Assembly: GCF_003334305.1 (NCBI RefSeq)
Contig: NZ_QOWS01000001.1
DNA: 64,000 nt
Strand: one strand, 5' to 3'
From: Escherichia coli
GTDB lineage: Bacteria; Pseudomonadota; Gammaproteobacteria; Enterobacterales; Enterobacteriaceae
The notes beneath the pieces are model-generated. The model worked only from the letters and a program-made list of their open reading frames with translations. It was not told the DNA's origin and searched no databases. The position numbers and the translations under genes were made by a program. Every line of letters begins with the position of its first letter. Position 1 is the stretch's first letter. Positions 32,502 to 43,700 of the stretch are shown here, piece by piece.

Positions 32502-33482
32502 ATGATGAGAGTAGAAAATAATAATGTTTCTGGGCAAAACCTTGACCCGGAACAGATTGATTTGATTGATTTACTGGTGCAACTATGGCGTGGCAAGATG
32601 ACAATCATCATTTCTGTCATTGTCGCTATTGTCCTGGCAATAGGATATCTGGTCGTTGCCAAAGAAAAATGGACTTCCACAGCTATCGTTACTCAACCTG
32701 ATGTGGGGCAAATCGCTGGTTATAACAATGCCATAAATGTGATTTATGGTTCAGCCGCGCCGAAAGTGTCTGAGATCCAGTCGATTTTAATTGGTCGCTT
32801 CAGCACGACATTTTCTGCATTAGCAGAAACGCTTGATAATCAGGAAGAACCTGAAAAACTGACTATTGAACCTACTGTAAAAAATCAGTCATTACCTTTA
32901 GCGGTGTCTTATGTTGGGCAATCGCCTGAAGCTGCGCAGAAACAGCTGGCTCAATATATCCAGCAAGTTGACGACCAGGTAAATGATGAACTTGAAAAAG
33001 ATCTGAAAGACAACATCGCGCTGCGTATGAAAAACTTACAGGATTCTCTGAAGACCCAGGAAGTGGTCGCTCAGGAGCAAAAAGAGCTGCGTATTCGTCA
33101 AATTCAGGAAGCGTTGCAGTATGCGAATCAGGCGCAGGTGACAAAGCCGCAGATTCAGCAGACACAGGACGTGACCCAGGATACCATGTTCCTTTTGGGG
33201 AGTGATGCACTGGAGTCGATGGTTAAGCACGAAGCGAGCCGTCCGTTGGTGTTCTCGTCAACCTACTATCAGACTCGTCAAAACCTGCTGGATATCGAAA
33301 GCTTAAAGGTTGATGATCTTGATATTCACGCTTACCGCTATGTGATGAAACCTACGTTACCCATTCGTCGTGATAGCCCGAAGAAGGCAATCACTTTGAT
33401 TCTGGCGGTGCTGCTGGGCGGCATGGTTGGCGCGGGTATTGTACTGGGGCGTAACGCGCTGCGTAATTACAACGCGAAGTGA
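32502..33482 (+). CDS. wzzB: O-antigen chain length determinant Wzz (polysaccharide co-polymerase 1)
   Basis: 326 aa ORF with N- and C-terminal TM helices and coiled-coil periplasmic domain; start could be the second Met at 32505. Confidence 0.9.
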   Translation: MMRVENNNVSGQNLDPEQIDLIDLLVQLWRGKMTIIISVIVAIVLAIGYLVVAKEKWTSTAIVTQPDVGQIAGYNNAINVIYGSAAPKVSEIQSILIGRFSTTFSALAETLDNQEEPEKLTIEPTVKNQSLPLAVSYVGQSPEAAQKQLAQYIQQVDDQVNDELEKDLKDNIALRMKNLQDSLKTQEVVAQEQKELRIRQIQEALQYANQAQVTKPQIQQTQDVTQDTMFLLGSDALESMVKHEASRPLVFSSTYYQTRQNLLDIESLKVDDLDIHAYRYVMKPTLPIRRDSPKKAITLILAVLLGGMVGAGIVLGRNALRNYNAK

Positions 33483-33500
33483 TTTTTGAGCTTAAAGAAA

Positions 33501-33536
33501 GCGGGCAGGGTGGTCACACCGTGCCCGTTTTTTTTG
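33501..33536 (+). terminator. Rho-independent terminator after wzz
   Basis: GCGGGCAGGGTG-gtca-CACCGTGCCCG hairpin (one mismatch) followed by T8. Confidence 0.75.
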
Positions 33537-33572
33537 TCGGATGCGATGCCGGCGTATCTTATCCAGCTTACA
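33536..33572. repeat. Single REP-like unit downstream of wzz
   Basis: GTCGGATGCGATGCCGGCGTATCTTATCCAGCTTACA closely resembles the REP unit at 2055-2092. Confidence 0.6.
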
Positions 33573-33675
33573 TATGTTGAGAAAATTTGTAGGCACGATA
33601 AACCTGCACACCGGGCAATGACGGATGAGTTGTTGCCGGAAGTGACAGCAACATCACATCCACCTACCCCGCAAC

Positions 33676-33783
33676 TCACTGATGCCGCGTGCGCAGAATC
33701 ACTATCACTGTTGTTAAATCCAGAATTTGAACCTGCAACAGCACCAGCAGGCGATACATCAAATCAGGCACCTCATTGGTTAG
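33676..33783 (-). pseudogene. hisI: Degenerate 3'-terminal fragment of hisI (last ~35 codons plus stop), displaced upstream of the his-linked polysaccharide cluster
   Basis: Minus-strand translation ...LTNEVPDLMYRLLVLLQVQILDLTTVIVILRTRHQ* parallels the HisI C-terminus; also ~85% nucleotide similarity to 46790-46860 inside intact hisI. Confidence 0.7.
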
Positions 33784-34365
33784 TATGTACCTTCGCAAAA
33801 CGGGATTACTCACAGCGAACATGGCGTAATTTTGTACAAATCTGTTTTTTTTATCAGCAGATTATTTAGCAACCAGGCAAAAAATGTCATGCCTTTCTTC
33901 ATTTTTACTTATATATCAATTGATTATAATTAATTGGTTTGGTAAATGTTTAAGATGTGTATTATTTGAGTAATCCATTAATTAGTCGGCTTTTATATTT
34001 TTTTTCCCAGCATGCAACGCTATAATCTGCGAAGATTTTTTTGTGGAATGTGCAGTGTAGAGGCATGAGTCGTTTATCCCACCAGTCGCAACATAACGCC
34101 GTCGTCGTGTGCAAAGAGCTGTCAAGCCCGAACGCGCGCTGCTTCTCTGGCGGCGAATACGATGTCTCTTCTTATCTTTCCTCGTATCGTAAATGCTCCT
34201 TTCTGATGGTTGCTGGCATCGGTAAATCACTTGATTCGTTTTTTTTGATGGCGGTGAGAGCATGTGTTTTGCCCCGCGTAAATGAGAAGGTCCTGATGGT
34301 TACTCTGGCGGCAAATGTGGAAATTGTGGGGCGTTTCGTGGCCTGGTGAGGAACAGATACATATT

Positions 34366-34403
34366 AAAAGCAGAGATATGCCCTGAGACATATCTCTGCT
34401 TTT
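34366..34403. terminator. Strong hairpin (13-bp stem) flanked by A-run and T-run; candidate bidirectional terminator / sRNA 3' end
   Basis: AAAAGCAGAGATATG-ccctgaga-CATATCTCTGCTTTT read directly. Confidence 0.55.
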
Positions 34404-34533
34404 AGGTTTTCAGGATGCCCGTTCCGTAAGGATGGTTTTTGAGACCGCTGAGTGAAGGGGCTGCCGACAGTCTGAAGCGAAAGAGGGTGGCGTTTAGCCT
34501 GGAGCACTACGCATTTTGGTTGCGATAGCCAAT

Positions 34534-34545
34534 GGCGGTAGCGTA
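34534..34545 (+). promoter_or_regulatory. ops element (GGCGGTAGCGTA) upstream of manC of the his-linked cluster
   Basis: Exact GGCGGTAG core 89 nt upstream of manC start; JUMPstart-like flanks. Confidence 0.8.
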
Positions 34546-34622
34546 CCTGAAAAAGGCCATTCAACCCGTTGGTCGATTGATTGATAGTAAAATAAAACAA
34601 TTATTTATTTAAGGATTTCATT

Positions 34623-36038
34623 ATGTTACTTCCTGTAATTATGGCTGGTGGTACCGGCAGTCGTCTCTGGCCGATGTCACGCGAGCTTTATCCGAAACAG
34701 TTCCTCCGCCTGTTCGGGCAGAACTCCATGCTGCAGGAAACCATCACCCGACTCTCGGGTCTTGAAATCCATGAACCGATGGTCATCTGTAACGAAGAGC
34801 ATCGCTTCCTGGTGGCTGAACAGCTGCGCCAGCTAAATAAGCTGTCGAATAACATTATACTTGAGCCAGTCGGGCGCAACACCGCGCCGGCCATCGCCCT
34901 GGCGGCCCTTCAGGCCACCCGCTACGGTGACGACCCGCTGATGCTGGTTCTCGCCGCCGACCACATCATCAATAACCAGTCGGCCTTCCACGACGCTATC
35001 CGGGTCGCCGAGCAGTATGCTGATGAAGGTCATCTGGTCACCTTCGGTATCGTGCCGAATGCCCCGGAAACTGGCTACGGTTACATTCAGCGCGGCGTGG
35101 CGCTCACCGATAGTGCCCATTCCGCGTACCAGGTGGCCCGCTTTGTGGAGAAGCCGGATCGCGAGCGCGCCGAGGCTTACCTCGCCTCCGGGGAGTACTA
35201 CTGGAACAGCGGCATGTTTATGTTCCGCGCCAAGAAATACCTCATCGAGCTGGCCAAATACCGTCCGGATATCCTGGAAGCCTGCCAGGCTGCGGTGAAT
35301 GCCGCCGATAATGGCAGCGATTTCATCAATATCCCACATGATATTTTCTGCGAGTGCCCGGATGAGTCCGTGGACTACGCCGTTATGGAGAAAACCGCTG
35401 ATGCGGTGGTGGTCGGTCTCGATGCTGACTGGAGCGACGTTGGCTCCTGGTCCGCACTATGGGAGGTCAGCCCGAAAGACGAGCAGGGCAACGTCCTTAG
35501 TGGCGACGCGTGGGTACACAACAGCGAAAACTGCTACATCAACAGCGACGAGAAGCTAGTGGCGGCCATTGGCGTAGAGAATCTGGTGATTGTCAGCACT
35601 AAGGACGCCGTGCTGGTGATGAATCGCGAGCGTTCCCAGGACGTGAAGAAGGCGGTCGAGTTCCTCAAGCAGAACCAGCGCAGCGAGTACAAGCGCCACC
35701 GTGAGATTTACCGCCCCTGGGGCCGTTGCGACGTAGTGGTCCAGACCCCGCGCTTCAACGTCAACCGCATCACGGTGAAACCAGGCGGTGCCTTCTCGAT
35801 GCAGATGCACCACCATCGCGCCGAGCATTGGGTTATTCTCGCCGGCACCGGTCAGGTGACGGTCAACGGTAAGCAGTTCCTGCTGTCCGAGAACCAGTCC
35901 ACCTTTATTCCGATTGGCGCCGAGCACTGCCTGGAAAACCCTGGCTGTATTCCGCTGGAAGTGCTGGAGATCCAGTCGGGGGCGTACCTTGGCGAGGACG
36001 ACATTATTCGTATTAAAGACCAGTATGGTCGTTGCTAA
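34623..36038 (+). CDS. manC: Mannose-1-phosphate guanylyltransferase (O-antigen copy)
   Basis: 471 aa; [11 protein letters not shown] motif; GC-rich relative to flanking genes; paralogue of cpsB. Confidence 0.9.
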
Positions 36039-36061
36039 TTATTTTCGGGACAAGATGCAGA

Positions 36062-37438
36062 ATGACACAGTTAACTTGTTTTAAGGCTTATGACATCCGT
36101 GGTGAACTGGGTGAGGAACTGAACGAGGACATCGCCTACCGTATCGGTCGCGCCTACGGCGAATTTCTGAAACCCGGGAAGATAGTGGTGGGGGGCGATG
36201 TGCGCCTCACAAGCGAGTCGCTGAAGCTGGCGCTGGCCCGCGGGTTAATGGACGCCGGTACCGACGTGCTGGACATCGGCCTGAGCGGTACCGAAGAGAT
36301 TTACTTTGCCACCTTCCACCTTGGGGTAGATGGTGGCATCGAGGTGACCGCGAGCCACAATCCTATGAACTACAACGGCATGAAGCTGGTGCGCGAGAAT
36401 GCGAAGCCCATCAGCGGCGACACCGGCCTGCGGGATATCCAGCGCCTGGCGGAGGAAAACCAGTTCCCGCCAGTGGACCCGGCGCGTCGCGGGACCCTGA
36501 GCAAGATATCGGTACTGAAGGAGTATGTTGACCATCTGATGAGCTACGTGGACTTCTCGAACTTCACCCGTCCACTGAAGTTGGTGGTGAACTCCGGAAA
36601 CGGGGCTGCGGGGCACGTGATTGATGAGGTGGAGAAACGCTTCGCGGCGGCTGGGGTGCCGGTAACCTTTATCAAGGTGCATCACCAGCCGGATGGCCAT
36701 TTCCCTAACGGTATCCCGAATCCGCTGCTGCCGGAGTGCCGCCAGGATACCGCCGACGCGGTGCGCGAGCATCAGGCAGACATGGGGATTGCCTTTGACG
36801 GCGACTTCGATCGCTGCTTCCTGTTCGATGACGAAGCTTCGTTTATCGAGGGGTATTACATTGTCGGCCTGCTGGCTGAGGCGTTCCTGCAGAAGCAGCC
36901 GGGAGCGAAAATCATTCACGACCCGCGCTTGACGTGGAACACGGTAGACATCGTGACCCGCAACGGCGGCCAGCCGGTGATGTCGAAGACGGGGCATGCG
37001 TTCATCAAGGAGCGGATGCGTCAGGAAGACGCTATCTACGGCGGGGAGATGAGTGCGCACCATTACTTCCGCGATTTCGCCTACTGCGATAGCGGGATGA
37101 TCCCGTGGCTGCTGGTGGCGGAGCTGCTGTGTCTGAAGAACAGCTCGCTGAAATCGCTGGTGGCGGACCGCCAGAGGGCGTTCCCTGCGTCGGGAGAGAT
37201 CAACCGCAAGCTAAGGAATGCGGCTGAGGCGATCGCCCGCATCCGGGCGCAGTATGAGCCGGCGGCTGCACACATCGACACAACGGACGGGATCAGTATT
37301 GAATACCCTGAATGGCGCTTTAACCTGCGCACGTCTAACACCGAGCCGGTGGTGCGTCTGAACGTTGAGTCCAGAGCTGATGTGGCGCTTATGAATGAAA
37401 AAACGACCGAGCTGTTACACCTGTTAAGCGGGGAATAA
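36062..37438 (+). CDS. manB: Phosphomannomutase (O-antigen copy)
   Basis: 458 aa from [14 protein letters not shown]; TASHNP active-site motif; paralogue of cpsG. Confidence 0.9.
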
Positions 37439-37439
37439 G

Positions 37440-38234
37440 GTGAGAGATTTACTAACGACGATTTATCGTTATCGGGGATTTATCTGGAGCAGTGTTAAAC
37501 GTGATTTTCAGGCGCGCTATCAAACTAGTATGCTGGGCGCACTATGGCTCGTTTTACAACCGCTCTCTATGATTCTGGTCTATACCCTGGTTTTTTCCGA
37601 GGTGATGAAGGCAAGAATGCCCGATAATACCGGGTCGTTTGCCTATAGTATTTATCTCTGTTCCGGGGTACTGACCTGGGGATTATTTACTGAGATGCTG
37701 GATAAAGGTCAGAGCGTATTTATTAACAATGCTAATCTGATCAAGAAACTCAGTTTTCCGAAAATCTGTCTGCCGATCATCGTGACGTTATCGGCGGTGC
37801 TAAATTTCGCGATTATTTTCAGTCTGTTTCTAATTTTTATCATTGTCACCGGTAACTTCCCCGGCTGGCTCTTTCTCTCGGTGATACCGGTCCTGCTTTT
37901 GCAAATCCTGTTTGCCGGTGGGCTGGGGATGATCCTTGGTGTCATGAACGTCTTTTTCAGGGATGTGGGGCAACTGGTTGGCGTTGCGCTGCAATTCTGG
38001 TTTTGGTTCACACCCATTGTTTATGTACTGAATTCATTACCTGCATGGGCAAAAAATCTGATGATGTATAACCCGATGACTCGGATCATGCAATCTTATC
38101 AGTCCATCTTCGCCTATCATCTGGCCCCCAACTGGTATTCGCTATGGCCAGTATTGGCTCTCGCCATTATTTTCTGTGTCATCGGTTTCAGGATGTTCCG
38201 CAAGCATGCGGCGGATATGGTGGATGAATTATAA
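37440..38234 (+). CDS. wzm: O-polysaccharide ABC transporter permease Wzm
   Basis: 264 aa, ABC-2 type permease with about 6 TM helices; GTG start. Confidence 0.85.
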   Translation: MRDLLTTIYRYRGFIWSSVKRDFQARYQTSMLGALWLVLQPLSMILVYTLVFSEVMKARMPDNTGSFAYSIYLCSGVLTWGLFTEMLDKGQSVFINNANLIKKLSFPKICLPIIVTLSAVLNFAIIFSLFLIFIIVTGNFPGWLFLSVIPVLLLQILFAGGLGMILGVMNVFFRDVGQLVGVALQFWFWFTPIVYVLNSLPAWAKNLMMYNPMTRIMQSYQSIFAYHLAPNWYSLWPVLALAIIFCVIGFRMFRKHAADMVDEL

Positions 38235-39448
38235 TGAGTTATATCAGAGTAAATAATGTCGGTAAGGCGTATCGCCAGTATCACTCAAAGACCGGGAGAC
38301 TGATCGAATGGTTATCCCCTCTGAATACCAAACGCCATAACTTGAAATGGATCCTCCGCGAGATTAATTTCGAAGTCGCTCCGGGCGAGGCTGTCGGTAT
38401 TATCGGTATCAACGGTGCAGGCAAGAGTACCCTGCTTAAACTCATAACCGGGACGTCCAGGCCGACGACTGGAGAAATTGAAATCTCCGGACGTGTCGCT
38501 GCATTACTCGAATTGGGGATGGGGTTTCATTCTGATTTCACTGGCCGGCAGAATGTTTATATGTCTGGGCAACTGTTGGGGTTATCGTCAGAGAAAATAA
38601 CTGAACTGATGCCGCAAATTGAAGAGTTTGCTGAGATTGGGGACTATATCGATCAGCCTGTGCGCGTCTACTCCAGTGGGATGCAAGTTCGATTAGCTTT
38701 TAGTGTAGCGACGGCTATCCGTCCTGATGTGCTAATTATCGATGAGGCATTATCTGTTGGGGATGCATATTTCCAGCATAAAAGCTTTGAGCGTATTCGA
38801 AAATTTCGTCAGGAAGGGACCACGCTGTTGCTGGTATCCCATGATAAACAAGCGATCCAAAGCATTTGCGACCGGGCCATTTTATTGAATAAAGGCCAAA
38901 TTGAAATGGAAGGTGAACCTGAAGCAGTGATGGATTATTACAATGCGCTTCTGGCCGATAAACAAAATCAGTCCATTAAACAAGTTGAGCATAATGGTAA
39001 AACGCAAACTGTTTCAGGCACTGGTGAGGTGACTATCTCTGAGGTTCATCTTCTCGATGAACAGGGCAATGTGACTGAATTTGTTTCGGTAGGGCATCGT
39101 GTCAGCTTGCAGGTCAACGTTGAGGTCAAGGACGATATTCCTGAGCTTGTTGTCGGATATATGATTAAGGATCGACTTGGACAGCCGATTTTCGGGACCA
39201 ATACGTACCATCTCAATCAGACACTCACCTCCCTGAAAAAAGGAGAAAAGCGTTCGTTCTTATTTTCTTTCGATGCGAGATTGGGGGTTGGCTCCTATTC
39301 TGTCGCTGTCGCGTTGCATACTTCCAGTACGCACCTCGGCAAAAACTATGAATGGCGCGATCTGGCCGTGGTATTCAACGTCGTTAACACGGAACAACAA
39401 GAGTTTGTCGGCGTGTCCTGGTTGCCGCCTGAACTGGAGATTTCTTAA
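38234..39448 (+). CDS. wzt: O-polysaccharide ABC transporter ATP-binding protein Wzt with C-terminal extension (putative carbohydrate-binding domain)
   Basis: 404 aa; Walker A GINGAGKST, signature YSSGMQVRLAF, Walker B LIIDEA; about 150 aa C-terminal extra domain. Confidence 0.85.
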   Translation: MSYIRVNNVGKAYRQYHSKTGRLIEWLSPLNTKRHNLKWILREINFEVAPGEAVGIIGINGAGKSTLLKLITGTSRPTTGEIEISGRVAALLELGMGFHSDFTGRQNVYMSGQLLGLSSEKITELMPQIEEFAEIGDYIDQPVRVYSSGMQVRLAFSVATAIRPDVLIIDEALSVGDAYFQHKSFERIRKFRQEGTTLLLVSHDKQAIQSICDRAILLNKGQIEMEGEPEAVMDYYNALLADKQNQSIKQVEHNGKTQTVSGTGEVTISEVHLLDEQGNVTEFVSVGHRVSLQVNVEVKDDIPELVVGYMIKDRLGQPIFGTNTYHLNQTLTSLKKGEKRSFLFSFDARLGVGSYSVAVALHTSSTHLGKNYEWRDLAVVFNVVNTEQQEFVGVSWLPPELEIS

Positions 39449-40725
39449 TGGGTTCGTCGTTTTATCGTTCATTTGAAGAACGACACAGAGGTTCGGTTGA
39501 AGAAATCAAGCGCCGCTTGAGTTTTTATTTACCTTTTCTTGCAGGTCTGAAGGACATTTATCCTGATGGCGTGATTGCGGATATTGGTTGCGGACGTGGC
39601 GAATGGTTGGAGATCCTGACTGAAAATGGCATTGCGAACATCGGCGTCGATCTCGATGATGGCATGCTGGCGCGCGCCAGGGAGGCCGGACTGAATGTGC
39701 AGAAAATGGATTGTCTGCAGTTTCTGCAAAGTCAGGCGGATCAGAGCCTGATAGCGTTGACCGGTTTTCATATTGCTGAGCATTTGCCTTTTGAGGTCCT
39801 GCAGCAGCTCGTCATGCATACCCTACGGGTGCTGAAACCAGGTGGTTTGCTGATCCTCGAAACGCCGAACCCGGAGAATGTAAACGTCGGCACCTGTTCA
39901 TTTTATATGGATCCAACGCATAATCATCCTCTGCCACCGCCACTGCTTGAGTTTTTACCTATTCATTATGGTTTTAACAGAGCAATTACCGTTCGTCTGC
40001 AGGAAAAAGAGGTTCTTCAATCTCCGGATGCAGCCGTTAATTTGGTCGATGTACTCAAAGGGGTGAGCCCCGACTACAGCATCATTGCTCAGAAAGCAGC
40101 GCCAACAGATATTCTTGAACGCTTTGACACCCTGTTTACCCAGCAGTATGGTCTGACGCTGGATGCTCTGAGCAACCGTTACGATGCGATTTTGCGCCAA
40201 CAGTTTTCGTCCGTTGTCTCACGGCTGGAGACGTTGAACCAAACCTATATGCAACAGATAAGCCAAATGTCAGAGACTATTCAGACTTTGCAAGGTGAGG
40301 TTGACGATCTGAGTCATGTCATCGATCAGAACCATCAGCTTCATCAGCAAATGGCGGATTTACATAACAGTCGTTCATGGCGTATTACTCAACCACTACG
40401 CTGGTTGTCTTTGCAACGTCAATTATTACGTCAGGAAGGGGCTAAAGTGCGAGCCCGTAGGGCTGCGAAAAAAATATTGCGCAAAGGGATGGCGCTCTCG
40501 CTGGTCTTTTTCCATCGTTACCCTAAGTCTAAGGTTTATCTGTTTAAGGTTCTGAGAAAAACTGGCTGCTATACATTGCTACAACGTTTGTTCCAACGCG
40601 TAATGCTGGTGCAATCTGACACGATGATGATGCAGTCCAGAAGATATGATGTGGGTACTGAAGAAATGACAAGTCGCGCGATGAGTATTTATAACGAATT
40701 AAAAAATAAAAATACGGAGAAATAA
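39448..40725 (+). CDS. wbdD: Chain-terminating SAM-dependent methyltransferase WbdD (methyltransferase-only, O8 / Klebsiella O5 type) with C-terminal coiled coil
   Basis: 425 aa; SAM-binding motif DIGCGRGEW; no kinase domain; coiled-coil and basic amphipathic C-terminus. Confidence 0.7.
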   Translation: MGSSFYRSFEERHRGSVEEIKRRLSFYLPFLAGLKDIYPDGVIADIGCGRGEWLEILTENGIANIGVDLDDGMLARAREAGLNVQKMDCLQFLQSQADQSLIALTGFHIAEHLPFEVLQQLVMHTLRVLKPGGLLILETPNPENVNVGTCSFYMDPTHNHPLPPPLLEFLPIHYGFNRAITVRLQEKEVLQSPDAAVNLVDVLKGVSPDYSIIAQKAAPTDILERFDTLFTQQYGLTLDALSNRYDAILRQQFSSVVSRLETLNQTYMQQISQMSETIQTLQGEVDDLSHVIDQNHQLHQQMADLHNSRSWRITQPLRWLSLQRQLLRQEGAKVRARRAAKKILRKGMALSLVFFHRYPKSKVYLFKVLRKTGCYTLLQRLFQRVMLVQSDTMMMQSRRYDVGTEEMTSRAMSIYNELKNKNTEK

Positions 40726-40727
40726 CG

Positions 40728-43700
40728 ATGCGTATTGTCATAGATTTACAAGGCGCACAGACGGAAAGCCGCTTTCGTGGCATCGGTCGTTATAGTATCG
40801 CAATCGCCAGAGGCATAATCAGAAATAACAGCCGGCATGAGATTTTCATCGCGCTATCCGCCATGCTGGATGAGTCGATTGCGGATATTAAGGCGCAATT
40901 TGCCGATCTCCTGCCGGCAGAAAATATAGTCGTATGGCATGCCGTAGGCCCTGTTCGTGCGATGGACCAAGGTAATGAATGGCGTCGGGAGAGCGCAGAA
41001 CTGATTCGGGAAGCGTTTCTTGAATCATTGTGTCCAGATGTCGTTTTCATTACGAGCTTGTTTGAAGGTCATGTCGACGATGCGGCTACATCGGTACACA
41101 AATTTAGTCGTCAGTATAAAGTAGCCGTACTGCACCACGATCTTATCCCCCTCGTGCAGGCGGAAACCTATCTGCAGGACGATGTATACAAACCCTACTA
41201 CTTACAGAAAGTTGAGTGGTTAAAAAACGCTGACCTTTTGTTGACTAACTCTGCTTATACCGCACAGGAAGCGATCGAGCATCTGCATTTACAGGGCGAT
41301 CATGTGCAGAATATTGCAGCCGCAGTCGATTCTCAGTTTTGTATGGCGGAGGTGACAGCGAGCGAAAAAGAGACCGTCCTTGGCCATTACGGTATTCAGC
41401 GCGAGTTCATGTTGTATGCGCCCGGAGGATTTGACTCAAGGAAAAACTTTAAACGGTTGATTGAGGCCTATGCCGGGCTCAGTGATGCCTTACGTCGCAG
41501 TCATCAACTGGTTATCGTCAGTAAGCTTTCCATCGGTGATCGTCAGTATCTGGAATCCCTTGCGTCAGGTAATGGTTTACAGCAAGGCGAACTGGTACTC
41601 ACTGGTTATGTGCCGGAAGATGAGCTGATCCAGCTCTATCGCCTATGTAAGCTGTTCATCTTTGCTTCACTACATGAAGGTTTTGGGTTGCCGGTTCTGG
41701 AAGCAATGTCGTGCGGTGCGCCGGTGATTGGCTCAAATGTCACCAGTATTCCTGAAGTCATCGGTAATCCTGAGGCATTATTCGACCCGTATTCTGTCTC
41801 TTCCATGAGGGATAAGATCGCGCAATGTTTGACTGATGATACCTTCCTCGCGCGTCTGAAAGAAATGGCGCAGCAGCAAGCGCGTAATTTCTCTTGGGAT
41901 AAAGCTGCGGTGACTGCTCTGGAGGCTTTCGAAAAGATCGCGGTAGAAGACACCGGTACTGCGCAGGTTTTGCCTGAAGCTTTGATTCAGAAGATCCTTG
42001 CTATCACACAAGGGCAGCCAGATGACCGCGATCTGCGCTTGTGCGCAACGGCCATTGATTACAATCTGAAAACGGCAGAACTTTATCAAATCGACGATAA
42101 ATCGCTGAACTGGCGTGTGGAAGGCCCATTCGATAGCTCATATAGTCTGGCGTTGGTCAACCGCGAATTTGCCCGGGCACTCTCAGCCGATGGTGTAGAG
42201 GTCTTATTGCATTCCACTGAAGGACCGGGTGATTTTGCCCCAGATGCCTCCTTTATGGCACAGTCGGAAAATAGTGATCTTCTGGCATTTTATAATCAAT
42301 GTCAGACCCGCAAGAGTAACGAAAAGATAGATATTCTTAGCAGAAATATCTATCCACCGCGGGTTACCAAAATGGATGCCAAAGTAAAATTCCTTCATTG
42401 TTATGCTTGGGAAGAAACGGGCTTTCCGCAACCGTGGATCAATGAATTTAATCGGGAACTTGACGGAGTGCTGTGTACTTCGGAACATGTTCGTAAAATA
42501 TTGATTGATAACGGACTGAATGTGCCCGCATTTGTTGTTGGCAATGGCTGTGACCATTGGCTCAATATCCCAGCCGAGACGACAAAAGATGTGGATCACG
42601 GAACATTCCGTTTCCTGCACGTCTCTTCTTGTTTCCCACGCAAAGGGATACAGGCAATGCTTCAGGCTTGGGGGAAGGCGTTCACTCGTCGTGACAATGT
42701 TATCTTAATCATTAAGACTTTTAACAATCCGCACAATGAAATTGACGCATGGCTGGCTCAGGCCCAGGCTCAATTCATAGACTATCCCAAAGTTGAAGTG
42801 ATCAAAGAGGATATATCAGCCACCGAGCTTAAAGGGCTTTATGAAAGCTGTGATGTTTTGGTTGCTCCAGGTTGCGCTGAAGGCTTTGGTTTACCTATTG
42901 CTGAAGCAATGCTGAGTGGGCTACCGGCTATCGTCACCAATTGGAGCGGGCAACTTGATTTTGTTAATTCACAAAATTCATGGCTGGTTGACTATCAGTT
43001 CACTCGGGTAAAAACGCACTTTGGTCTGTTTTCCTCAGCCTGGGCCAGTGTGGATATTGACAACTTAACAGATGCATTAAAAGCGGCAGCCTCAACCGAT
43101 AAATCAGTGCTGCGTGACATGGCCAATGCTGGTCGCGAGCTTCTTCTGCAGCAGTTTACCTGGAAAGCGGTGGCTGATCGTTCTTGCCAGGCGGTCAAGA
43201 CTCTGCGTGCGCATATTGATATTGCACAGCATCGGGCGCGCATTGGCTGGTTGACGACCTGGAACACGAAATGTGGGATCGCAACCTATTCCCAGCATCT
43301 GGTGGAAAGCGCACCTCATGGCGCGGATGTTGTTTTTGCTCCCCAGGTCAGCGCTGGCGATCTTGTGTGTGCAGACGAAGAGTTTGTACTTCGCAACTGG
43401 ATTGTAGGTAAAGAGAGCAACTATCTGGAAAACCTCCAGCCACACATTGATGCTCTGAAACTCGATGTCATTGTGATCCAATTCAACTATGGATTCTTTA
43501 ATCATCGAGAACTGTCGGTGTTTATTCGTCGCCAGCATGACGCCGGTCGTTCAGTTGTTATGACGATGCACTCAACTGTGGATCCGCTGGAAAAAGAGCC
43601 GAGCTGGAATTTCCGTCTTGCTGAAATGAAAGAGGCGCTGGCACTTTGCGACCGGTTGTTGGTGCATTCGATTGCCGATATGAACCGCCTTAAAGATTTA

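Follow-up and report, generated by a model that had tools for sequence, protein, structure and literature searches.

The window, by which we mean the whole 64,000-nt stretch of Escherichia coli DNA that was analysed, matches E. coli strain H15 across 33 kb at 99.9% identity. Upstream of gnd the H15 annotation places the colanic acid genes, galF and then an O46/O134-family wzx/wzy cluster. From gnd to hisIE the features are the following, with the strand given where one was assigned.

29538-30944: gnd (H15 annotation and ORFs)
31193-32359: ugd (H15 annotation and ORFs)
32505-33482, plus strand: wzzB, O-antigen chain-length regulator, the recipient-side flank (PGAP annotation of H15)
33483-33675: wzz-hisI spacer native to the recipient (aligned with K-12, GF130 and EC32)
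about 33501-33536: hairpin plus T-run in this spacer
33546-33629: REP-like insertion of about 84 nt in the spacer, missing in K-12 and present in "empty-site" E. coli such as EC32
33630-33675: 46 nt of the spacer that match the sequence directly downstream of K-12 hisI
33676-33796, minus strand: hisI 3' remnant, a pseudogene fragment comprising the last 132 nt of an Escherichia-type hisI including the TGA stop (alignments, PGAP pseudogene calls)
33797-33822: junction zone holding the putative illegitimate joint (anchored stacks and alignments)
33823-34622, plus strand: donor-type leader, homologous to the Klebsiella uge-manC intergenic region (homology to cS100a, HS, L099 and L095)
34509-34545: JUMPstart, in the leader upstream of manC
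34534-34541: ops, GGCGGTAG, within the JUMPstart-like match
34623-46703, plus strand: O8-type polymannose cluster (ORFs and H15 annotation), with the eight genes that follow
34623-36038, plus strand: manC
36062-37438, plus strand: manB
37440-38234, plus strand: wzm, O8-family
38234-39448, plus strand: wzt, O8-family
39448-40725, plus strand: wbdD-like methyltransferase gene
40728-44369, plus strand: wbdA, encoding a 1213-aa mannosyltransferase
44433-45578, plus strand: wbdB
45588-46703, plus strand: wbdC
46704-46780, minus strand: Klebsiella-type spacer with a GC-rich hairpin (46704-46741) and the last 39 nt of the intact hisI (informative-site scan)
46781-46789, minus strand: right-hand crossover zone, GGGCTGGAT, the same in E. 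coli and Klebsiella hisI (informative-site scan)
46790-47350, minus strand: E. coli-type body of the intact, functional-looking hisIE (202 aa), all informative sites being E. coli-type

The gap of about 1.1 kb between wzzB and manC contains no real gene, and beyond hisIE the remainder of the his operon lies, by the H15 annotation, on the strand opposite to the O8 cluster. The window also carries a second polysaccharide cluster at 23707-29419, between galF and gnd, which is of the wzx/wzy type and belongs to the O46/O134 family by the H15 annotation. The wzy gene of this cluster reads as one 379-aa ORF here (26759-27898) and is annotated as frameshifted in the near-identical H15; the galF-gnd clusters differ among the other strains that carry the hisI remnant.

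The genes of the insert are the same set that is found in the E. coli O8/O9/O9a clusters (manC, manB, wzm, wzt, wbdD, wbdA, wbdB, wbdC). As in those Klebsiella-derived clusters (Klebsiella O5/O3), the site is between gnd/ugd/wzz and hisI, with the right boundary inside hisI, and there is no difference in kind; what is added here are boundaries at base level. Reviews regard his-linked polymannose loci as usual in Klebsiella and atypical in E. coli, where they result from lateral transfer (PMC7685785), and the transfer of such clusters from Klebsiella to E. coli is the accepted view (PMC7685785, citing Sugiyama et al. 1998, Amor & Whitfield 1997, Kido et al. 1995). By annotation there is no integrase or transposase inside the insert, all eight genes being sugar-nucleotide, ABC-transporter or transferase genes, and the interval 33400-47400 contains neither a transposase nor inverted repeats of at least 25 nt. 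A 33-nt motif (GAAGG.TT.GG.TT.CC…GAAGC.ATG) recurs at 41676-41708 and 42879-42911 in wbdA and at 45312-45344 in wbdB; presumably it is the conserved E-x7-E region of glycosyltransferase family 4 and not a mobile repeat.

The subject of this analysis is the short segment next to the wzz-hisI spacer, which the initial annotation had read as a decayed copy of the HisI C-terminus, stop codon included. The minus strand of 33676-33783 does translate as LTNEVPDLMYRLLVLLQVQILDLTTVIVILRTRHQ*, and the similarity to the end of the intact hisI, which had been put at about 85%, was recovered by BLASTN as an ungapped match of 33718-33784 with 46781-46847 (56 of 67 nt, 84%, E 3e-16). This was the single significant match between the wzz-manC gap and the hisI region. 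When the hisI 3' end was searched across the 64-kb window there was again one significant second site (E 4e-15; next best E 0.56), and a repeat search returned a sole long direct repeat bracketing the cluster, 33672-33784 and 46735-46847, of 113 nt and 73% identity ungapped, with a spacing of 13,063 nt. The intact hisIE at 46742-47350 is on the same strand as the fragment and 12.96 kb distant, in agreement with the separation of about 13 kb reported earlier.

Comparison with K-12 identifies the fragment more closely. It is 80% identical to K-12 hisI over 105 coding nt, in frame to the stop and with the same RHQ* end, and in a three-way alignment it ends …CGGCATCAGTGA (…RHQ*, TGA) and continues with GTTGCGGGGTAGG…, as in K-12 hisI. 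Together with the spacer it matches K-12 ungapped over 154 nt (108 nt of hisI and 46 nt of hisI-wzz spacer) at 80.5%. The stop-proximal 40 nt or so match K-12 hisI well and the intact hisI of the window poorly, because the intact end is of the Klebsiella type. In all three sub-segments the remnant is nearest to Escherichia hisI (74-92%) and farthest from Klebsiella (58-71%), and at positions -48 to -132 it has the Escherichia states (ACC not AAG, GATTTG not GACCTG, GTT/GAT not GAC). The original limits, 33676-33783, hold as far as they go, but the remnant runs on to 33796. The added part corresponds to hisI -121 to -132 and follows an 11-nt deletion between 33783 and 33784; since the GF130 allele keeps these 11 nt, the hisI homology reaches at least -132 (33796). 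It stops between -132 and about -150 of the 609/612-nt gene, and neither a start codon nor the remainder of the gene is present.

Two elements of the earlier description have to be revised. The fragment had been called displaced, and yet it occupies the native position of the hisI end, 193 nt from the wzz stop as compared with 185 nt in the empty-site strain EC32, and the whole stretch from the wzz stop to the hisI stop is collinear with EC32, REP-like insert included. Judged from these alignments, the remnant was left in place, and it is the rest of hisI that has moved away from it. The fragment had also been taken for a copy of the end of the resident hisI. It is rather the older, original end, Escherichia-type and in situ, and is almost certainly the stranded hisI end of the recipient E. 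coli. The REP-like insertion in the adjoining spacer is apparently an old presence/absence polymorphism of the wzz-hisI spacer; an Rfam match to naRNA4, a REP-derived family, at 33499-33568 overlaps it and falls below threshold.

The recipient-side genes are themselves variable. Identity to K-12 amounts to 94% for gnd and 97% for the his operon, whereas wzzB and ugd are only about 84-85% identical to the K-12 and EC32 alleles. Further, the window and GF130, both of which carry the remnant, differ by 15% in ugd and have wzz genes that are 94.6% identical. This pattern suggests that the ugd-wzzB region (31193-33482) is a fine-scale mosaic.

At the other boundary, an informative-site scan was carried out with the 240 alignment columns that differ between K-12 and a Klebsiella O3-type contig (L089), Klebsiella sequence having been reached through a protein search and exact-protein look-ups. 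The hisI of the window is E. coli-type at every informative site up to GGGCTGGAT, and from there on the sequence is Klebsiella-type, through the final 39 nt of the gene and the 38-nt spacer/terminator into wbdC; the BLAST boundary with K-12 falls at 46781. Identity to the Klebsiella O3-type contig is 92% for wbdB/wbdC and 76-80% for hisI and hisF. The C-termini of two HisIE proteins that NCBI names as Klebsiella (P0053 and P0056) read GEVIDNL[RK]xRH, which the end of the intact HisIE of the window matches, and the contig that encodes P0056 has the order hisI-wbdC-…-wbdA-wbdD-wzt-wzm-manB, a Klebsiella O3-type locus. The same E. coli/Klebsiella pattern is seen in the hisI-end alignment for the O9 strain HS. 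By its informative sites, then, the working hisI is an inter-genus chimera that carries a donor 3' end.

At the left boundary the E. coli wzz-hisI spacer and the remnant give way to homology with the Klebsiella-type uge-manC leader, which begins at 33823 (GGCGTAATTTT…) in cS100a, HS and L099 and at 33937 in L095. L099 is a Klebsiella-type uge-manC locus that was fetched through the small membrane protein, and L095 is a second one. In Klebsiella-type loci the equivalent of 33823 lies 264 nt upstream of the uge start, and it is about 800 nt before manC. The 26-28 nt that precede GGCGTAATTTT are about 40-48% identical to hisI and about 54% to the Klebsiella-type leader, a degree of decay that prevents a base-level reading of the joint or of any microhomology. 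Within the leader, 36 nt are 100% identical in a Klebsiella-type O1/O2 locus (L093). A conserved stretch of about 40 nt at 34365-34404 also aligns to itself in the opposite orientation in several loci, suggesting that the leader has a palindromic hairpin here. An ORF at 34065-34349 (plus strand) is a 94-aa "hypothetical protein" in many RefSeq genomes and is truncated in GF130; between strains its substitutions are spread evenly over the three codon positions (e.g. 19/21/13), and it probably belongs to the non-coding leader of the O8 operon. Other O8/O9 E. coli have neither wzz nor the remnant at this place, and upstream of manC they show either ugd-IS1 or, in the Klebsiella arrangement, ugd-small membrane protein-uge-leader; their homology to the window also sets in at 33823. 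Unlike these IS1-linked and uge-linked loci, the wzz-linked arrangement has a left junction of its own, marked by the hisI remnant.

The remnant has decayed extensively. Across 13 Enterobacteriaceae the C-terminal 35 residues of HisIE hardly vary, and the remnant has eight replacements at such invariant positions. Its 21 differences from K-12 in 105 nt are distributed 3/7/11 over the codon positions, and the seven changes at second positions compare with 0-2 between functional orthologues of different genera. Two alleles are found, a window-type with an 11-nt deletion and a GF130-type with a 6-nt deletion, which are independent. Over spacer and remnant these alleles are only 77% (BLAST) or 82% (MAFFT) identical, whereas their flanks are closer (wzz 94.6%, leader beyond about 33980 95-99%). 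The description of the fragment as a decayed hisI C-terminus is borne out by the eight replacements of invariant residues, the seven second-position changes and the allele-specific deletions, and the remnant appears to evolve without purifying selection, as a functionless, decaying pseudogene would. That its divergence merely reflects that of a divergent functional allele was considered and is ruled out by the changes at second positions and invariant residues. A divergent recipient haplotype does probably account for part of the third-position differences, because the adjacent ugd and wzz are also only about 84-85% identical to K-12. In several genomes PGAP lists the fragment as an incomplete hisIE or as a "pyrophosphohydrolase domain" pseudogene of 117-126 nt, "incomplete; missing N-terminus"; such calls were seen in strains GF130, TK3889, BS90R-A and 571. 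The correct annotation is a hisIE pseudogene, not a protein.

Of 5426 complete E. coli genomes, 228 contain the spacer and remnant at an identity of at least 95%. A junction query made up of the remnant and 317 nt of donor leader was covered by at least 80% in about 241 of these genomes (about 4%). Counting the records that match in two places gives an unreliable number of remnants, one such case being an IS1397 insertion that splits the spacer. Among the matches that were sampled none was to the remnant alone, and the partial matches there always lacked the remnant side. No intact E. coli hisI end in the 5426 genomes is more than 90% identical to the remnant. The proposal that the remnant marks the acquisition junction would be in difficulty if the remnant also occurred in strains devoid of the insertion; none was found there above 90% identity in the 5426 genomes, and the sampled remnants were always contiguous with donor-type DNA. 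All the carriers that were inspected are O8.

From the two types of hisI end, the two boundaries, the decay and the distribution in the population we infer the following molecular route. Before the transfer the last 132-150 nt or so of the recipient's hisI would have been in their native place, convergent with wzz. The incoming DNA would have consisted of the Klebsiella-type leader, manC through wbdC, the terminator and the last 39 nt of Klebsiella hisI. On the left, an illegitimate join would have linked the uge-manC leader to the recipient's hisI some 130-150 nt from its stop; that this join was assisted by microhomology is conjecture, because 33797-33822 is too decayed for the joint to be read. 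On the right, homologous exchange would have taken place within the his genes, with the consequence that the working hisI now ends in donor sequence 13 kb away. The old hisI end, severed from its gene, would then have drifted by substitutions and deletions. As a single explanation, a stranded recipient end produced by a left illegitimate join and a right homologous exchange is in our judgment quite likely. The suggestion in the initial annotation that a foreign his-linked segment recombined in with its own hisI 3' end is upheld by the chimeric hisI, the Escherichia-type remnant and the Klebsiella-type homology from 33823 onward.

There is a complication, in that E. coli-type hisI from about -48 to -132 is present twice, in the remnant and in the intact gene. 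A single replacement directly from Klebsiella is therefore insufficient, and a second step or a donor with a chimeric hisI is needed. The locus might have been imported from Klebsiella with the right crossover deeper in his, E. coli alleles later replacing the his genes up to about -48. Alternatively, homology-facilitated illegitimate recombination might have involved an E. coli donor that already possessed a chimeric hisI, or a fragment of such a donor might have been circularised and then integrated by a single crossover. In E. coli conjugation, homology-facilitated illegitimate recombination was shown to occur at about 3e-10 per recipient (PMC3240628). As in the products of that process, foreign DNA lies in the present locus between a homologous exchange at the his end and a non-homologous joint at the opposite end. 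Unlike the situation in that study, the process must here be deduced from the product alone, and the 13-kb insert exceeds the small substrates used there. The architecture fits, yet circularisation followed by a single crossover gives the same product, and the joint at 33797-33822 has decayed.

On the circular route, a linear fragment extending from the manC leader some 150 nt into hisI would have circularised, making the hisI-leader joint, and one RecA-dependent, Campbell-like crossover in about 100-150 nt of hisI homology would have duplicated the stretch in a single step. The cluster is indeed flanked by direct hisI repeats, as a single crossover yields, and circularisation with a single crossover is reported to be among the main outcomes when linear DNA enters E. 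coli (PMC3240628). With an E. coli donor that already carried a chimeric hisI, both copies would be E. coli-type at -48 to -132, as observed. A Klebsiella donor crossing over near -45 predicts instead Klebsiella-type sequence at -48 to -132, and a Klebsiella circle of this kind is excluded by the Escherichia-type sequence of the remnant there. In addition, the homology is very short (about 100 nt), and the two copies now differ by 16% plus indels, which masks their original identity. Genomic islands that target the 3' end of a tRNA gene become flanked by direct repeats of that end, and the gene stays whole through the end that the donor supplies. The present locus resembles such Campbell-type integration in that direct repeats of the 3' end of the target gene flank the insert and hisI is kept intact by a donor end; it is unlike it in having no integrase and no site-specific att core, and the hybrid-repeat pattern expected of a Klebsiella circle was not found. 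On balance we regard the circular route as somewhat unlikely, and in a direct comparison we lean slightly toward the illegitimate join with homologous exchange. Two mobile-element mechanisms were also examined. An integrase-mediated genomic island with att duplication was rejected, there being no integrase and the sole flanking repeat being the 113-nt hisI repeat at 73% identity; a transposon or IS insertion was rejected since there are no transposase and no inverted repeats and the duplicated stretch is about 85-100 nt, not 2-14 bp.

The remaining explanations dispense with a stranded recipient end altogether. His-linked O loci can carry pieces of hisI, as does an island in E. coli L37, and the remnant might have arrived within the donor DNA if a hisI piece already preceded the polymannose cluster in Klebsiella or some other donor. 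This is very improbable, for the remnant is Escherichia-type and continuous with the E. coli wzz-hisI spacer, four Klebsiella-type loci have uge-side leader and not hisI to the left of the equivalent of 33823, and there are O8/O9 E. coli with the Klebsiella-like arrangement and without the fragment. Still less credence can be given to the fragment being a functional small gene (a "pyrophosphohydrolase domain-containing protein", as some annotations name the product) or a selected regulatory RNA or terminator element. Its conservation at 95% or more in about 228 genomes might be cited in favor of function, but PGAP calls it an incomplete pseudogene, it lacks both a start codon and the catalytic N-terminal part, its substitutions, including those at eight invariant residues, fall on all codon positions, and no Rfam family matches the hisI fragment, which counts against a functional RNA. 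One allele has a frame-breaking 11-nt deletion and the other a 6-nt deletion, and the alleles are far less alike (about 77-82%) than their flanks (94-99%). As to chance similarity with no common origin, the shortness of the segment is all that speaks for it; with E values of 3e-16 and 4e-15, and with frame, stop and 46 nt of downstream spacer collinear with the hisI of K-12 and EC32, its probability is negligible.

Comparison of the junction with the genes that it introduces has implications for the age of the event. "Gene remnant(s)" are among the anomalies that mark past genetic events in E. coli O-antigen clusters (PMC7685785), and like such boundary remnants the hisI fragment marks a recombination boundary with a non-functional, truncated part of a housekeeping gene from the flank. 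Unlike them, it is far more decayed than the neighboring genes and exists as two deeply diverged alleles, which together with the strong decay suggests an old rather than a recent junction. From manC onward the window is 96-100% identical to other E. coli O8 loci, whereas the leader (33823-34622) is only 75-86% identical. This difference points to a mosaic history in which the locus has been reshuffled since the junction was formed. The shared junction, its alleles at about 77-82%, the heavy decay and the near identity of the O8 genes suggest that junction and leader long predate the resident O8 alleles, and by these identities the junction looks older than they are. The O8 genes that are now resident may not be those that arrived with the junction; the resident alleles would have swept in later by recombination within a fixed scaffold. 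It is conceivable, and we put it forward tentatively, that a single old integration, separate from the imports of whole Klebsiella-like capsule-plus-O regions, gave rise to every wzz-linked O8 locus in E. coli. If there was such a single old event, the remnant could serve as a rough clock to date the Klebsiella-to-Escherichia transfer.

As a whole, the remnant is a routine recombination scar at a well-known site of lateral transfer, already flagged by public annotation, and the current understanding of O-antigen evolution is unchanged. A literature search by phrase returned no relevant published mention of the hisI remnant, the key cluster papers of the 1990s being outside the reach of that search. 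The value of the scar is that both boundaries of a textbook lateral transfer are fixed almost to the base, the left one within 33797-33822 and the right one within 46781-46789, and that it provides a simple marker by which wzz-linked O8 loci, present in about 4% of complete E. coli genomes, can be told apart from IS1-linked and uge-linked loci.

Several related observations were made in other genomes. By megablast, a Klebsiella hisI-wbdC query matched 877 of the 5426 complete E. coli genomes (16%), as compared with about 450 for the manC leader, in alignments that extend through hisI at lower identity, so that coverage cannot separate right-hand junctions. Among the matches listed, those to this query lay over adjacent hisIE and wbdC (or a glycosyltransferase gene). 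The excess of hisI-wbdC over leader matches implies that many strains, O89m included, seem to keep only the distal end of the O8/O9 cluster. In E. coli 571 (L003 12001-15741, NZ_CP183117), which has an O30-type galF-gnd cluster, the remnant, a 5'-truncated wbdB and an intact wbdC have been kept and an IS3-family element stands in place of the rest of the O8 cluster, a loss of O8 that left both boundary markers.

The island of E. coli L37 (L104 14692-25304, NZ_CP034589) presents a different case. It matches the first 385 nt of a Klebsiella query at 96.4%; this match lies within hisI and ends about 43 nt before the stop, the gene being annotated as a complete hisIE of 199 aa. The same query has matches of at least 95% in 18 E. 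coli genomes. The island also contains a 3' fragment of hisF and an ABC-transporter O-antigen locus (rfbBADC, wzm/wzt and a GT99 transferase), is situated away from the his operon, and adjoins tRNA-Cys/Leu, integrases and IS903B/ISEc35. From its gene content it appears to be a his-linked O locus that has moved with hisI attached.
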